Shown: piece after piece, positions 2,876 to 9,711 of the stretch
Layout of the letters: each line of letters begins with the position of its first letter
How positions within the stretch are numbered: position 1 is the first letter of the stretch
From: a virus
Taxonomy: Duplodnaviria; Heunggongvirae; Uroviricota; Caudoviricetes
DNA length: 9,711 nt
Virus record (IMG/VR): IMGVR_UViG_2706794665_000014
Direction: 5' to 3' (one strand)
The notes under the pieces: model-generated
Seen by the model: the letters and a program-made list of their open reading frames with translations, nothing else
Database searches by the model: none
Told to the model about the DNA's origin: nothing
Program-made: the position numbers and the translations under genes

Positions 2876-3953
2876 ATGGCTAACGCCTGGCTCAGATTAT
2901 GGCATGACATGCCAAATGACCCTAAGTGGCGAACAATTGCCAGGGTGTCAGGGCAGCCAATTGCAACAGTGATGGCAGTGTATATCCACCTCCTGGTGAG
3001 CGCGTCACGAAATGTCACGCGAGGTCACATTGATGTCACGACAGAAGNNNNNNNNNNNNNNNNNNNNNNNNNNNNNNNNNNNNNNNNNNNNNNNNNNNNN
3101 NNNNNNNNNNNNNNNNNNNNNNNNNNNNNNNNNNNNNNNNNNNNNNNNNNNNNNNNNNNNNNNNNNNNNNNNNNNNNNNNNNNNNNNNNNNNNNNNNNNN
3201 NNNNNNNNNNNNNNNNNNNNNNNNNNNNNNNNNNNNNNNNNNNNNNNNNNNNNNNNNNNNNNNNNNNNNNNNNNNNNNNNNNNNNNNNNNNNNNNNNNNN
3301 NNNNNNTGTCACGACGAGTCACGACAGATACAGATAAAGATACAGATAAAGAAGATCAAAACACTATGGTCCATGGCGTAAAAAACGCCACGAACCAGGC
3401 AGGGGATGTTCAGACCGTCAATCCTGGTCAGCCAGCAGGCTCGACACCGGAAGCCGATTCAGCGTATGCGCTGAAAGCCGATTCGGGCGCTGTGCAGCAG
3501 GTGATGACCGCAAGGCCGGAGCAATCACTCCAACTGCAGCAGCCTGAAGCCGATTCCGCCATTCAGCGGGAAGCCGATCGGGTAGCCCCGGAAAACACCG
3601 GGCAGCCTGTGGGACGAGTGGATTATCCGGATGTGTTCGAACAGGTCTGGCGGGAATACCCGTTGCGTGCCGGGGCAAACCCGAAGAAATCCGCATTCAG
3701 TGCCTGGAAGGCCAGATTGCGCGAGGGGGTGCCACCAGAGACCATGCTGGATGGTGTGAGGCGTTACGCGAGATACCTGGCGGCGACCGGGAAAGCGGGA
3801 ACGGAATTTGTTCAGCGAGCGACGACGTTTTTTGGGCCGGACCGGAATTTTGAAAACCCCTGGTTGCTCCCGGTAAGCGGCACGAACAACCAGCGTTGTG
3901 TGAATCATATTTCTGAACCGGATACCGAAATTCCGCCGGGATTCAGGGGGTGA
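2876..3953 (+). CDS. Phage replication initiator / replisome organiser (YdaU-DUF1376-like N-terminus), origin iterons inside the coding sequence; frame not continuous across the masked gap (possible frameshift/pseudogene, or two ORFs)
   Basis: ATG 2876 after AGAAGAGG RBS. N-terminus MANAWLRLWHDMPNDPKWRTIARVSG... is typical of phage replication proteins. The C-terminal portion (frame of 3012-3953) ends in a TGA that overlaps the dnaC-like ATG. The frame before the gap (codons at 2876+3n) ends at TAA 3335-3337 after the gap, while the frame reaching 3953 is different. Confidence 0.5.
3004..3350. repeat. Replication-origin-like iteron array (TGTCACG-type repeats at about 10-bp spacing) followed by an AT-rich tandem repeat; the middle is masked
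   Basis: GTCACG at 3004-3009, TGTCACG 3013-3019, GGTCACA 3023-3029, TGTCACG 3034-3040; after the gap TGTCACG 3307-3313 and AGTCACG 3317-3323; then GATACAGATAAA twice (3327-3338, 3339-3350). Confidence 0.5.
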
Positions 3954-4696
3954 TGTGGCATGANNNNNNNNNNNNNNNNNNNNNNNNNNNNNNNNNNNNN
4001 NNNNNNNNNNNNNNNNNNNNNNNNNNNNNNNNNNNNNNNNNNNNNNNNNNNNNNNNNNNNNNNNNNNNNNNNNNNNNNNNNNNNNNNNNNNNNNNNNNNN
4101 NNNNNNNNNNNNNNNNNNNNNNNNNNNNNNNNNNNNNNNNNNNNNNNNNNNNNNNNNNNNNNNNNNNNNNNNNNNNNNNNNNNNNNNNNNNNNNNNNNNN
4201 NNNNNNNNNNNNNNNNNNNNNNNNNNNNNNNNNNNNNCTGATGACCGGGTGCACGAATTTTGTGTTCAGCGGTAAAACCGGCACCGGGAAAAATCACCTT
4301 GCAGCGGCGATGGGTAACCGGCTGATGGCGAAGGGGCGCAGCGTGATTATCGTCACCGAGTCTGATGTCATGAGCGTGTTGCATGACAGCTACGACAACG
4401 GCAAATCCGGTGAAAAATTTTTACAGGAGCTTTGCGGGGTTGATTTGCTGGTCCTGGATGAAATAGGCATTCAGCGGGAGACGAAAAACGAGCAGGTGGT
4501 ATTGCACCAGATAATTGATCGCCGGACAGCATCACTGTGCAGTGTCGGGATGTTAACAAACCTGAATCATGCCGCAATGAGCACGCTTCTTGGTGAGAGG
4601 ATTATGGACCGCATGACCATGAACGGTTGTCGGTGGGTGACGTTTAACTGGGATAGCTGGCGTTCAAATGTCAGCTTTCCGGGAGTTGTGAAGTAA
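3953..4696 (+). CDS. DnaC-like replicative helicase loader (IstB-like AAA+ ATPase; YdaV-like)
   Basis: Walker A FSGKTGTGKNHLAAA and Walker B LLVLDEIG. ATG 3953 overlaps the stop of the upstream replication gene (TGATG). The N-terminal ~90 codons are masked (3964-4237). Confidence 0.85.
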   Translation: MWHXXXXXXXXXXXXXXXXXXXXXXXXXXXXXXXXXXXXXXXXXXXXXXXXXXXXXXXXXXXXXXXXXXXXXXXXXXXXXXXXXXXXXXXXXXXXLMTGCTNFVFSGKTGTGKNHLAAAMGNRLMAKGRSVIIVTESDVMSVLHDSYDNGKSGEKFLQELCGVDLLVLDEIGIQRETKNEQVVLHQIIDRRTASLCSVGMLTNLNHAAMSTLLGERIMDRMTMNGCRWVTFNWDSWRSNVSFPGVVK

Positions 4697-5968: not shown

Positions 5969-6325
5969 ATGGAAATAAAACCAGAAGATGAGTTAAGCAA
6001 TATTGTTTTATTTCCGGTAAAAGAGGATAACCCTCGTAATCAGGTTAATTTTCTTTATGAGCCATCGGAAAGACCATATTGCCATCACGCTTCTGTCCGG
6101 GTTGACGAAAAAGAGCGTCAGGTCCGCTGTAAAATTTGCGGTGCAGTTGTGGAGCCATTTGACTGGATGCTCTCTGTGGCGAAAAGAGAAACCAGACTGG
6201 CAGATGATGTAAGGCTCTTGCGCCAGGAGGAGCGGGAAAGGCGAAAAAATATAGAAAAGCTAATCCAGATTGAGCGTAATGCGAAAGCGCGGATACGCAG
6301 GGTGACAAAATATAGCCCCGAATAA
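5969..6325 (+). CDS. Hypothetical protein (118 aa), zinc-ribbon-like Cys/His cluster plus basic coiled-coil C-terminus
   Basis: ATG 5969 after strong RBS AAGGAGAGGAG. Motif YCHHASVRVDEKERQVRCKICGAVV, then an Arg/Glu-rich helix (LLRQEERERRKNIEKLIQIERNAKARIRR). Confidence 0.6.
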   Translation: MEIKPEDELSNIVLFPVKEDNPRNQVNFLYEPSERPYCHHASVRVDEKERQVRCKICGAVVEPFDWMLSVAKRETRLADDVRLLRQEERERRKNIEKLIQIERNAKARIRRVTKYSPE

Positions 6326-6539
6326 TCAAGGTTATTTCTGGAAGTCAAGTCGTGAGTGATGAGGACTAACAAATACGGTGAACTCGATAAAGAGATTCAG
6401 GACGAACTGGAGGCCAGGAATGATTGACAAATCACCAAGTGAGTTCAGCTACAAAGATTTATTGTCATAACGGGTTATGAGATCGACTTGGTGCGTGATA
6501 TTCTTCGGGCCAGTTTGCTATGCGCCACCATGAGATGTT

Positions 6540-8372
6540 ATGGCCCGCATGTTTGATACATTAGGATTTTACATTATGAATGTGCAACATTTTGATTTTT
6601 TTACAGATAATGAGTTTTCTAATCTGGAAAGATATCAAACTTGTAAAGCCATGGCCAAAGGTTATGCGGGCAATTACAAAACCGGGCAGTCAAGGTTGAT
6701 GCATGCCCGCTCATACTGCTTCAGCATCGTAGCTGCATATTGGGATACCCTTGCAAAAAAGCAAAAAAGCAGCATTAAAATGAGGGCAGTACCGCACACT
6801 GTTTACATAGAAGACATTCCATGTGATGCACGCGAGCTCGCTGAACGAACAGGTGAGCTTATTGCTCAATTTCCGGCGGAGGACGCTGGATATCTGATTG
6901 GGTCAATTTATACGGTAATGCTGCCATCCGCTTACCGTTCGGAATTGGGGGCTTACTATACCCCCCCACCTTTGGTAGCGCGTCTCTTGGACCTGGCTGA
7001 AAAGTCTGGTGTTGATTTTTCTCATGCATCGGTTATTGATCCTGCGTGTGGTGGCGGTGCATTTTTGGCACCAGTAGCCATTCGAATGTTAAAAAAAGAC
7101 AAGGGGTCTTCCCCTGAATGGATGTTGAGGAGAATCAGTCGTCGTTTAAAGGGGATAGAGATCGATCCATTTGCGGCTTGGATGAGTTTGGTATTGCTCG
7201 AATCTGTACTAATGCCACTATGTGTAAAGGTAAAACGTAGATTGCCTGAAGATACAATTATTGTTGCTGATGCGCTTCAGCAAGATAAATTTTCTGGTTA
7301 TGATCTTGTGGTAGGGAATCCGCCTTACGGACGTGTCACTCTCGATATTAAAACGAGAGAAAAATATTCTCGTTCGTTATTTGGTCATGCAAATCTATAT
7401 GGATTGTTCACCGACTTAGCTGTTCGCATGGTTAAAGAGAAAACAGGAGTTATTGCATTTCTTACGCCAACTTCTTTTCTTGGTGGGCAGTATTTCACCG
7501 CGCTGCGAACCCTTTTGACCGAAAAAACTACTCCGTATGCCCTTGATTTCGTCACTGACAGGGATGGGGTCTTTGACGATGTTCTCCAGGAAACAATGTT
7601 GACAGCATTCAAGGCGGGAGAACATAAAGTTCGGGCCCAGGTATCCTCACTTGTCCCTAAGGGGTTGAACAAAGCAAAAATTGAGAAAATAGGTAATGTT
7701 GATATAGAAAAAGGTGGAGCAACGTGGCTTTTGCCACGCGTTAAAGATGATGCCTGTTTTCTTAATGTATTAAAACAGATGTCTACGCGTTTAGCTGATC
7801 TGGGATACTCAGTCTCTACAGGTCAGTTAGTCTGGAATCGATTTAAGTCGCAGTTGCGTACGACGAAAGGAAAAAATAGCTACCCATTAGTCTGGGCGGA
7901 ATCAATAACTTCAGCTGGTTTTCGTTTTAGTGCAGACAGAAAAAATCATGTTCCCTATATCGATATAACCCCACAACAGGGTTTCCTTGTGACAAAATCT
8001 GAATGTGTGCTTGTTCAGCGGACAACATCGAAGGAACAGGACAGAAGGATTTTAGCGGCAATTTTACCTCAGGGATTTATAGATGAAACTGGTGGCGTAG
8101 TAGTTGAAAACCATATTAATATTGTATATTCAAACGGATTGTTCTCTGCGGTTCGCCCTGATGTTATTGATATGCTACTTAATTCGCATGTTGTCGATCG
8201 GGCGTTCAGGTGTATAAGCGGAAGTGTTGCTGTTTCGGCCTATGAATTGAATTCAATCCCGTTGCCTTCTCTGGAGCAGGTGATGGAGATTCAATCGTTA
8301 ATTGATGCTGGCGTCCACAGACGGATTATTGAGAGAACTATCGCTGGTTTCTATGGAGTGATGATTGCATGA
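6540..8372 (+). CDS. N6-adenine DNA methyltransferase, gamma class (Eco57I/TaqI-like), 610 aa
   Basis: Motif X GAYYTPPPLVARLL (about 6948-6989), motif I VIDPACGGGAFL (about 7032-7067), motif IV VVGNPPYG (NPPY at 7317-7328), in the order X-I-IV. Alternative start ATG 6576 with AGGA RBS. AT-richer than the upstream phage genes. Confidence 0.85.
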   Translation: MARMFDTLGFYIMNVQHFDFFTDNEFSNLERYQTCKAMAKGYAGNYKTGQSRLMHARSYCFSIVAAYWDTLAKKQKSSIKMRAVPHTVYIEDIPCDARELAERTGELIAQFPAEDAGYLIGSIYTVMLPSAYRSELGAYYTPPPLVARLLDLAEKSGVDFSHASVIDPACGGGAFLAPVAIRMLKKDKGSSPEWMLRRISRRLKGIEIDPFAAWMSLVLLESVLMPLCVKVKRRLPEDTIIVADALQQDKFSGYDLVVGNPPYGRVTLDIKTREKYSRSLFGHANLYGLFTDLAVRMVKEKTGVIAFLTPTSFLGGQYFTALRTLLTEKTTPYALDFVTDRDGVFDDVLQETMLTAFKAGEHKVRAQVSSLVPKGLNKAKIEKIGNVDIEKGGATWLLPRVKDDACFLNVLKQMSTRLADLGYSVSTGQLVWNRFKSQLRTTKGKNSYPLVWAESITSAGFRFSADRKNHVPYIDITPQQGFLVTKSECVLVQRTTSKEQDRRILAAILPQGFIDETGGVVVENHINIVYSNGLFSAVRPDVIDMLLNSHVVDRAFRCISGSVAVSAYELNSIPLPSLEQVMEIQSLIDAGVHRRIIERTIAGFYGVMIA

Positions 8373-9469
8373 ATCTGCCTGTTGTTCCCCCATTGAATGT
8401 TATCCGGGAAAGATTACAATTAATTTTCCCTGAAGGGACTGAGAATCGTGGATATTTAATTCGGGAAATAGCTGCAAAAACAATTTTTGTCATGTTTTAT
8501 GCTGGTGCGGTTGAGGGGCTGGGGCGATGGATAAGGCCCAGCCAGGTTGTAAGTATGGGAGATTCGCAGGCTGCTCTTACTGATGATGCGTCCAGAGAAA
8601 GCTGGGTAAAGATGACTTTCTCTAAACAAAAGATAAGGCCTGCTGATGCATGGTATGCGGAAAATACGCGTGAGCCAATACGTGATGAAACTATAAAAAA
8701 TGGCCTAATACCTTGCAATGCAATTGTTGAGCGTAAAGGTATACCCACCACATCCTCTCGTCCTCGTTACAGTTTGAATCGCTCTTTTGCAGCACTCTTT
8801 GATGCCGGGCTTGAAGGAGATTCGCTGCTGAGTGCAATAAGTTCCTGGCAAGAAAATCATTTGAACAAAGCCGCTCTTGCTAGNNNNNNNNNNNNNNNNN
8901 NNNNNNNNNNNNNNNNNNNNNNNNNNNNNNNNNNNNNNNNNNNNNNNNNNNNNNNNNNNNNNNNNNNNNNNNNNNNNNNNNNNNNNNNNNNNNNNNNNNN
9001 NNNNNNNNNNNNNNNNNNNNNNNNNNNNNNNNNNNNNNNNNNNNNNNNNNNNNNNNNNNNNNNNNNNNNNNNNNNNNNNNNNNNNNNNNNNNNNNNNNNN
9101 NNNNNNNNNNNNNNNNNNNNNNNNNNNNNNNNNNNNNNNNNNNNNNNNNNNNNNCCAGATATTATTTTGATTGATTTGGGAGAGGACCGAACGGGTTCGG
9201 ACATGCTTGTAGTTTTCACTGAAGTAGTTGCGACAGATGGGCCTATAAACAGGGAACGAAAAGTTACTCTCACTCATTTGGCTATTGACGCTGGGTTCAG
9301 CGAGAAAAATCTTGCATTCCTTACGGCATTTATGGACAGAAGTGCTCTGCCTTTTAAAAAGGCAATACCAGAATTGGCGTGGGGATCTTATGCATGGTTT
9401 GCTTCTGAACCGGAGCACTTAATTGATCTTCGGGATGGTTATCCGGTAAAGATCAGCCAGAGAAAATGA
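8369..9469 (+). CDS. Methyltransferase-coupled partner protein, 366 aa; putative restriction endonuclease (possibly BsuBI/PstI-like), family not verified
   Basis: ATG 8369 overlaps the MTase stop (ATGA) with GGAG about 10 nt upstream, so operon coupling is clear. No catalytic motif recognised by eye; about 90 central codons are masked (8884-9154). Function inferred from context. Confidence 0.6.
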   Translation: MNLPVVPPLNVIRERLQLIFPEGTENRGYLIREIAAKTIFVMFYAGAVEGLGRWIRPSQVVSMGDSQAALTDDASRESWVKMTFSKQKIRPADAWYAENTREPIRDETIKNGLIPCNAIVERKGIPTTSSRPRYSLNRSFAALFDAGLEGDSLLSAISSWQENHLNKAALAXXXXXXXXXXXXXXXXXXXXXXXXXXXXXXXXXXXXXXXXXXXXXXXXXXXXXXXXXXXXXXXXXXXXXXXXXXXXXXXXXXXXXXXXXXXPDIILIDLGEDRTGSDMLVVFTEVVATDGPINRERKVTLTHLAIDAGFSEKNLAFLTAFMDRSALPFKKAIPELAWGSYAWFASEPEHLIDLRDGYPVKISQRK

Positions 9470-9621
9470 CCAAAGTTTGATATCCGCCACGCCCTGAAGG
9501 ATGGGGGTTTTACGGTGCACTGGATAAAAAATCGGTTTCATAGATTTGCCCACCGTGGTATACGCCTGCGATAAAAACTTTATTGTCATCAACGGCAAAA
9601 GCAATAATTGTTCTGTGGCGG

Positions 9622-9711
9622 GGTGATGCTGCCAACTTACTGATTTAGTGTATGATGGTGTTTTTGAGGTGCTCCAGTGGCTTCTGTTTCTATCAGCTGT
9701 CCCTCCTGTTC
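9622..9711 (+). mobile_element. IS1 insertion sequence, 5'-terminal 90 bp (left inverted repeat and start of insA); the element continues past the window end
   Basis: GGTGATGCTGCCAACTTACTGAT at 9622-9644 is the IS1 terminal repeat, followed by the canonical IS1 leader and the insA start. Same orientation as the IS1 end at 1-60. Confidence 0.88.
9677..9711 (+). CDS. insA: IS1 InsA, N-terminal codons (3'-partial)
   Basis: GTG 9677 then GCT TCT GTT TCT ATC AGC TGT CCC TCC TGT TC, giving (M)ASVSISCPSC, the InsA N-terminus. Confidence 0.7.
   Translation, partial: MASVSISCPSC

Follow-up and report, generated by a model that had tools for sequence, protein, structure and literature searches.

A probable two-gene Type IIP restriction–modification cassette of the BsuBI/PstI family carried by a lambdoid prophage of Escherichia coli

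Does the AT-rich gene pair at the distal end of the replication block of this E. coli lambda-like prophage encode a known restriction–modification system, or an undescribed form of defence? The initial annotation of the locus, a 9,711-nucleotide stretch (IMG/VR record IMGVR_UViG_2706794665_000014; hereafter, the window), had pointed to a methyltransferase gene (here M) and a coupled partner (here R) as candidate antiphage cargo, and had allowed that the partner might be a non-canonical effector. We assign the two genes, with a probability of about 0.9, to a two-gene Type IIP restriction–modification cassette of the BsuBI/PstI family that is carried as cargo by a lambdoid prophage. The family membership of both proteins, the conservation of catalytic residues, the operon structure and the cargo position were established by comparison, and the pair is a member of a widespread, already catalogued family and not a new defence system. 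Homologue searches returned thousands of relatives for M and for R, and both are therefore real genes rather than chance open reading frames (ORFs). The features of the locus are collected in Table 1.

Table 1 Features of the cassette and its surroundings, with positions in the window
Feature	Position	Strand	Comment
Cassette leader, non-coding	6330-6539	.	Left boundary of cargo insert at about 6330
M, gamma-class N6-adenine DNA methyltransferase	6540-8372	+	Longest ORF 610 aa; Pfam, PADLOC and M.TaqI matches
Methyltransferase motif X, GAYYTPPPLV	6948-6977	+	Residues 137-146
Methyltransferase motif I, DPACGGGAFL	7038-7067	+	AdoMet binding; residues 167-176
Methyltransferase motif IV, catalytic NPPY	7317-7328	+	Residues 260-263; aligns with NPPY of M.TaqI
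M stop/R start overlap, ATGA	8369-8372	+	Translational coupling
R, BsuBI/PstI-family Type II restriction endonuclease	8369-9469	+	366 codons counting the mask; Pfam, SdaI and PADLOC matches
R N-terminal HTH DNA-binding domain	8396-8881	+	Residues 10-171; PF17728, E = 2.4e-30
Masked stretch inside R	8884-9154	.	Start of nuclease domain, including invariant Glu213 and Lys234
Visible part of R nuclease domain	9155-9433	+	PF06616; the family's variant PD-(D/E)XK core
R core residues PD and E-V-V	9155-9160; 9221-9229	+	Glu at 9221-9223
parE toxin gene, 3′ remnant	9510-9621	-	Last 36 codons and stop; cut by IS1; neighbour, outside the pair
IS1 left end, from terminal inverted repeat GGTGATGCTGCC	9622-9711	.	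100% identity to IS1 elements, among them that of phage P1

Profile searches matched both proteins to the families that had been suspected. M exceeded the Pfam thresholds for Eco57I (51.4 bits, cut-off 25.3) and N6_Mtase (37.6 bits, cut-off 20.4), its top sequence match in the PDB was M.TaqI, and residues 7–608 aligned almost end to end with the PADLOC model MTase_II PDLC03338 (1.8e-300, profile positions 2–602 of 604). The gamma-class order X–I–IV described at the outset was confirmed, and all three motifs are intact. Residues 416–584 also correspond to the C-terminal part of the EcoGIII-type methyltransferase (within a 355-residue alignment, E = 7e-27), and this alignment places a target-recognition region after the catalytic domain. 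The true start of M is likely to be the ATG at 6576, giving a protein of 598 residues, rather than that at 6540, because nearly all homologues have this length and begin at what is Met13 of the longest ORF; an AGGA lies upstream of this ATG, at 6562–6565.

The partner was identified as a nuclease, as the initial annotation had supposed, and as one of the PstI/BsuBI type, for which that annotation had suggested a check. Its N-terminal domain, which lies entirely outside the masked stretch, matched PF17728 (BsuBI_PstI_RE_N) at 105.6 bits (cut-off 27). PF06616 was matched by the visible half of the domain in the masked window copy (71 bits, E = 9.6e-20) and almost end to end in an unmasked near-identical copy (152 bits, 9.3e-45, profile positions 2–152 of 154), in which PF17728 was also matched (E = 1.2e-30). 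The PADLOC model REase_II PDLC03589 covered R over its full length (2.8e-128), and RefSeq names the protein a BsuBI/PstI family endonuclease. The restriction endonuclease SdaI (2ixs) was the sole significant PDB match by sequence (1.8e-16). It was also the sole significant fold match when a model of an 89%-identical R homologue (mean pLDDT 78) was searched against the PDB with Foldseek (2ixs_A, E = 3.6e-16, probability 1.00; next match, E = 0.07), and this homologue model suggests that R adopts an SdaI-like two-domain fold.

Although no nuclease motif had been recognized in the visible part of R, the PD…E core stands immediately after the mask. Across 40 homologues, PD258, E279-x-V281, E213 and K234 of R are invariant; PD and ExV align with Asp233 and Glu248 of SdaI and with the EcoGIII-type endonuclease, and PF06616 has been placed in the PD-(D/E)XK superfamily (PMC3424549). 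The N-terminal HTH domain also retains a conserved helix, YAENTREPIRDET, common to SdaI and EcoGIII-type R. The position of SdaI K251 is occupied by Ala in R and by Thr in EcoGIII-type R, so the catalytic lysine of R must lie elsewhere, and K234 is a candidate for this role.

The architecture of the pair is equally characteristic of its relatives. The ATGA overlap between M and the partner ORF was confirmed. In all 80 related loci examined, which are species representatives of the M/R subfamily, M lies directly upstream of R on the same strand, with an overlap of 4 nt or 1 nt in 52 of them. The same order and strand recur in a prophage of Citrobacter as well as on chromosomes of Burkholderia and Pseudomonas. 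The co-directional, coupled arrangement, first read as a departure from PstI-like systems, is thus the rule in this subfamily, and the EcoGIII type shares it. A simple scan of the leader found no convincing sigma-70 consensus promoter on the plus strand, and the window holds no gene for a controller (C) protein.

The view of the pair as prophage cargo was likewise upheld. Homology with cassette-less lambdoid prophages, represented in thousands of E. coli genomes, ends at 6311–6329, and the cassette lies in a slot flanked by the replication and nin/Q regions. In another prophage, the same slot is filled by DUF7167 and hokD, so that the cassette sits in a variable, swappable cargo position beside toxin–antitoxin modules. 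Its composition also differs from that of the replication genes, as had been noted: G+C is 43.2% in M and 44.2% in R versus 51–56%, and GC3 is 0.35–0.37 versus 0.50–0.64. The right-hand boundary had been drawn at IS1 and needs correction, as the parE remnant intervenes between the stop codon of R (9469) and the start of IS1 (9622). A near-identity search of phage genomes returned the IS1 end as its sole match.

We then weighed readings in which the pair is not a working cassette of this family. The least improbable is that it is a decaying remnant in the source strain, in which M perhaps persists as a solitary methylating enzyme beside an inactive R, in a prophage eroded by IS1. IS1 has indeed already destroyed parE, 41 nt downstream of R, a related prophage in one near-identical copy (L001) has three frameshifted genes, and 271 nt of R are hidden, so a lesion there is possible in the window copy. 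The hidden sequence could be recovered from L001 and a second near-identical copy (L090), and the window copy itself stays masked. Both copies have 253 nt in place of the 271 N, contain no stop codon there and encode an intact R of 360 residues. The mask is thus 18 nt longer than their sequence, which means either that masking did not preserve length or that the window copy carries 18 extra in-frame bases; in both cases, the reading frame is kept. Moreover, visible M and R are open throughout and 99–100% identical to the intact copies, and the contig of L090 shares the IS1 junction of the window while its R is intact. We therefore regard decay as unlikely.

Far less probable still are two readings that place the pair outside the BsuBI/PstI family. 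The suggestion of a non-canonical effector in an undescribed methyltransferase-associated system finds its one residual oddity in the position of the catalytic lysine, a feature common to the whole BsuBI/PstI family, and it conflicts with two Pfam domains far above threshold, the SdaI match by sequence and by fold, retained active-site residues, end-to-end PADLOC models for both proteins and an existing RefSeq family name for R. Matches of M to components of other defence systems were partial and far under the cut-offs. BREX was rejected on PglX NCBIfam scores of 30–37 bits against cut-offs of 400–900, and MADS on a MAD2 NCBIfam score of 21 bits against a cut-off of 720; the partner genes of neither system are found nearby in L001. 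A Type IIG reading of M was ruled out by gene content and sub-threshold scores. Equally improbable is M as a fragment of a Type I system, a notion invited by its RefSeq name ('HsdM family'), by the HsdM-type nature of the N6_Mtase domain (PF02384) and by Type I M subunits among its PDB matches (E = 2e-5 to 4e-5). Neither hsdS nor hsdR occurs in the window or within 9 kb on either side of the intact copy in L001, M has a C-terminal target-recognition region of its own, which aligns with that of the PstI-type methyltransferase, its best models are Type II, and its partner is a Type II endonuclease.

Within the BsuBI/PstI family, sequence relationships place the pair in what we call a 'long-methyltransferase' subfamily, sister to the PstI/EcoGIII type. 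By best match, neither M nor R falls into the PADLOC PstI/EcoGIII cluster proper; the models of that cluster are second best (PDLC03227 for M, 2e-50; PDLC03420 for R, 2e-28). A CTGCAG-specific pair from Stx phages shows the reverse ranking, with PDLC03227 and PDLC03420 as its best models, which indicates that the two proteins parted from a PstI-like ancestor as a pair. Relatives of the pair occur in at least 368 species. In E. coli, the lineage is rare, the intact cassette being present in 2 of 5426 complete genomes.

Which sequence would such a pair recognize? CTGCAG, or a site derived from it, is the most plausible target. PstI, BsuBI and AplI share CTGCAG, even though an Acinetobacter homologue has only 33–60% identity to these three (PMC13458397). 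The target is not confidently transferable, because R shares only about 26% identity with the characterized CTGCAG enzyme type and about 20% with SdaI in the structural alignment. The CTGCAG systems in the literature are of the short PstI type, namely EcoGIII and Psy9853I (M and R together, 2,423 bp), and a literature search found no methylome or enzyme assignment for the long-methyltransferase subfamily. In 672 kb around the 80 carrier loci, a sample of carriers only, CTGCAG showed no notable depletion, with an observed/expected ratio of 0.86 and a rank of 45 among 64 six-base palindromes; CTCGAG was lowest at 0.50, and nearly all 64 palindromes fell below 1. We tentatively entertain the possibility, somewhat less probable than its converse, that specificity has shifted at about 26% identity and that the subfamily may have a target different from CTGCAG. 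An uncharacterized Type IIP specificity would then be present in hundreds of species and in this E. coli prophage, and the matching m6A mark could affect host gene expression.

Taken as a Type IIP cassette, the pair suggests a simple mode of action. The product of M would be a gamma-class, AdoMet-dependent N6-adenine DNA methyltransferase that marks a short palindromic target in host and prophage DNA alike. Ribosomes terminating on M would translate R, whose product is predicted to combine an N-terminal winged-helix DNA-reading domain with a C-terminal PD-(D/E)XK-type nuclease domain in an SdaI-like architecture. Incoming DNA that lacks the mark would be cut by this endonuclease, and cutting would shield the lysogen from superinfecting phages and penalize loss of the prophage. 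Activity in the source strain is predicted, as are the roles in phage defence and addiction. The cassette offers no new defence principle, and its significance is modest. The practical consequence, for strain engineering or phage therapy, is that carriers would probably restrict DNA lacking the modification. For phage biology, E. coli lambdoid prophages carry, besides EcoGIII of Stx phages, a second and distant PstI-family restriction–modification lineage.

Among the closest known systems is the EcoGIII type of Stx2-converting phages (M 489 aa, R 317 aa, CTGCAG). This system is reported to methylate its CTGCAG target and to cut it, and to provide protection from lambda-like phages (PMC6602927). 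It too is cargo of lambdoid E. coli prophages, comprises the same two protein families and has the M-then-R order with a 4-nt overlap, and both endonucleases share the PD…ExV(T/A)(S/T)xGP core and the YAxNTRE helix motif. It differs in sequence, with about 26% identity to the window pair for M and R alike, and in length: M of the window is longer by about 110 residues at its N terminus, and R of the window by about 43 residues. The types also fall into different PADLOC clusters (PDLC03227/03420 for EcoGIII, PDLC03338/03589 for the window), and the EcoGIII type adjoins cI in Stx phages, whereas the window cassette lies between replication and nin/Q genes.

SdaI (PDB 2ixs; CCTGCAGG), which reads an 8-bp site, is the sole solved structure that matches R. 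Its HTH domain is N-terminal and its nuclease domain C-terminal, as in R, but it is only about 20% identical in the structural alignment, with its Lys251 facing an Ala of R. The global TM-score between SdaI and the model of the R homologue is low (0.39–0.44), a value that probably reflects a different relative orientation of the two domains in the model. PstI, BsuBI and AplI (Swiss-Prot P00640, P33562 and D4ZX34; all CTGCAG) are the founders of PF06616 and PF17728, the Pfam families through which R is likened to them. The R and M genes of PstI are divergently transcribed, whereas those of the window pair and its subfamily are co-directional and coupled. Finally, the PADLOC model PDLC03359 (840 positions), presumably a YenI-like fused M–R protein, has halves that are matched by M (2.2e-27) and R (1.7e-13) in the M-then-R order. 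It differs from the window, where two separate genes are translationally coupled, in being a single fused protein, and the EcoGIII type resembles it far more, matching each half at about 1e-140.

The module at the right end of the window is a genuine, correctly delimited restriction–modification (R–M) cassette. It consists of a methyltransferase gene (M) and an endonuclease gene (R), which are co-directional and share an ATGA at 8369–8372. The initial annotation described the open reading frames, this overlap, the gamma-class motif order (X–I–IV) and the AT-richness accurately: G+C is 43.2% in M and 44.2% in R versus 51–56% in the upstream replication genes, and GC3 is 0.35–0.37 versus 0.50–0.64. 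Because nearly all M homologues are 598 aa long, beginning at the query's Met13, and an AGGA (6562–6565) lies nine bases 5′ of the ATG at 6576, translation probably starts there rather than at the ATG at 6540, 12 codons earlier.

Coordinates of the cassette and flanking features in the window.
Feature	Position	Strand	Remarks
ParE-family toxin	1003–1293	−	
PaaA2-type antitoxin	1293–1487	−	
HTH regulator	1507–2037	−	176 aa; cI position; faces the Cro-like and YdaT genes
M	6540–8372	+	610 aa as longest ORF
Motif X, GAYYTPPPLV	M residue 137		
Motif I, DPACGGGAFL	M residue 167		
Motif IV, NPPY	M residue 260		
R	8369–9469	+	366 codons counting the mask; 271 bases masked
parE toxin gene remnant	9510–9621	−	last 36 codons; cut by IS1; between R and IS1
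IS1 left end	from 9622		window ends at 9711

M is an intact gamma-class m6A methyltransferase. In the Pfam profile search that the initial annotation had proposed, it scored above the thresholds for both Eco57I and N6_Mtase; its best PDB sequence match was M.TaqI, with the NPPY regions aligned, and the PADLOC Type II model PDLC03338 covered it end to end (1.8e-300).

The partner had been read as the nuclease, with the alternative that it was a non-canonical effector, no nuclease motif having been recognized in its visible part. R is a canonical, already catalogued nuclease, as its Pfam domains, structural match, active-site residues, PADLOC model and RefSeq name (BsuBI/PstI family Type II restriction endonuclease) all indicate. 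The window copy carries the two defining domains of BsuBI/PstI restriction endonucleases, the N-terminal HTH domain PF17728 (E = 2.4e-30) and, on its visible half, the nuclease domain PF06616 (E = 9.6e-20); with the unmasked protein of a near-identical copy (L001), PF06616 matched across the whole profile at 9.3e-45. This domain has been placed in the PD-(D/E)XK superfamily (PMC3424549). SdaI (2ixs) was the sole significant PDB match by sequence (1.8e-16) and likewise in the search for a nuclease fold (3.6e-16, probability 1.00), for which the query was the AlphaFold model of an 89%-identical R homologue (pLDDT 78). PDLC03589, a PADLOC Type II model, covered R end to end (2.8e-128). The PD…E motif is in fact visible directly 3′ of the mask; across 40 aligned homologues PD258, E279-x-V281, E213 and K234 do not vary, and the PD and ExV correspond to Asp233 and Glu248 of SdaI and to their EcoGIII-type counterparts. 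The position of SdaI Lys251 is Ala in R and Thr in the EcoGIII type; the BsuBI/PstI family as a whole therefore uses a variant motif. R is thus an endonuclease of the PD-(D/E)XK type, intact and equipped with an HTH reading domain.

The masked part of R (8884–9154), whose recovery had been suggested, was obtained from two copies: a 99.9%-identical one in E. coli FDAARGOS_943 (L001) and a Logan contig (SRR30464234; L090). R is open and intact at 360 aa in both; its sequence does not differ between them, nor from the window's R at any visible residue. The mask comprises 271 N against 253 nt in the copies, an in-frame difference of 18 nt, and two further masks also disagree with relatives (3048–3306, 259 versus 246; 3964–4237, 274 versus ~284). 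From these three mismatches we suspect that masks do not preserve length, so ORF lengths spanning them, such as 366 aa for R, are unreliable.

The window covers the immunity–replication region of a lambdoid prophage, with genes running from DUF1391 through a ParE/PaaA2 toxin–antitoxin pair with an HTH regulator, Cro-like and YdaT genes, a replisome organiser, a DnaC/IstB-like ATPase, DUF1627 and a DUF977 region to a small zinc-ribbon protein. We take the minus-strand block at 1003–2037 to resemble the paaR2–paaA2–parE2 system of O157:H7 cryptic prophages. Homology to thousands of E. coli prophages ends at 6311–6329, and the cargo therefore begins at ~6330. In E. coli 52148, the slot, upstream of DUF968–RusA–Q, holds DUF7167 and hokD; in L001 it holds the R–M pair and parDE. 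The cassette is rare, being intact in 2 of 5426 complete E. coli genomes. IS1 had been taken to bound the module, but a parE remnant separates it from R; in the intact relative L001, parE is followed by parD. The contig L090 has exactly the same parE–IS1 junction, so the insertion is common to at least one other sequenced isolate. Counting the 1003–2037 block and this second parE, the prophage therefore has, or had at one time, two ParE-type modules besides the R–M pair. In a Citrobacter sedlakii prophage (L003, 7451–8560), a RecA-like gene and one for a LexA-DNA-binding-domain protein replace parDE after the cassette; adjoining cargo is therefore exchanged independently of the R–M pair. Burkholderia and Pseudomonas loci have a 78-aa ORF upstream of M–R (L005, 3965–4201; L007, 2871–3107), which in Pseudomonas matches HTH_31 weakly and could encode a controller protein, and an 85–88-aa ORF just 3′ of R (L005, 7133–7390; L007, 7123–7389) with no Pfam match; the E. 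coli prophage cassette has neither.

Coupled M-then-R order had been considered unusual for PstI-like systems, a view the relatives overturn. Members of the subfamily are encoded in at least 368 species-representative genomes, and each of the 80 loci examined has a full-length M homologue immediately 5′ of R on the same strand. The junction is a 4-nt overlap in 25 of these loci, a 1-nt overlap in 27 and within a few tens of bases in the remainder. A Citrobacter prophage and Burkholderia and Pseudomonas chromosomes show this arrangement too. The EcoGIII-type pair of Stx2 phages has the same order (M, 489 aa; R, 317 aa; 4-nt overlap). Tight translational coupling is thus kept across phyla. Of the earlier reading, the nuclease partner stands; the non-canonical effector and the atypical arrangement do not.

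By analogy with Type II enzymes and the EcoGIII precedent, M would methylate one adenine per strand of a palindromic site and R dimers would cut sites lacking methylation. Coupling would make R synthesis depend on, and stay subordinate to, that of M, which could let the cassette establish itself safely in a new host; the gains would be protection from superinfection for the lysogen and stability for the prophage.

The pair belongs to a known R–M family. As its recognition sequence we lean towards CTGCAG, alone or as the core of the site, because the helix motif YAxN(T/S)RExxRxx(T/S) is common to R, SdaI (CCTGCAGG) and the EcoGIII type (CTGCAG), and the CTGCAG enzymes BsuBI, PstI and AplI already differ greatly in sequence, one homologue being only 33–60% identical to them (PMC13458397). 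Palindrome avoidance in the 80 carrier loci, scored without a non-carrier control, gives this target no support, CTGCAG being unremarkable. The most depleted six-base palindrome in these uncontrolled loci was CTCGAG (O/E 0.50, z ~−8), which may reflect generic avoidance in the carrier taxa.

Pairs of a BsuBI/PstI endonuclease and an N-6 methylase have been reported in SGI1-related islands, including in Vibrio mimicus (PMC9035990), and a V. mimicus methyltransferase is 60% identical to M. The EcoGIII-type system, for which methylation and cleavage of CTGCAG and protection against lambda-like phages have been reported (PMC6602927), shows only ~26% identity to M and likewise to R, and the window's proteins are longer, M by ~110 residues at its N terminus and R by ~43. 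The two pairs rank the PADLOC models in reciprocal order: the PstI/EcoGIII-type models (PDLC03227/PDLC03420) come second for the window pair but first for the Stx-phage pair, which matches the window's models at lower rank. M and R therefore diverged together from a PstI-like ancestor, and we file the pair as a sister subfamily within the BsuBI/PstI family.
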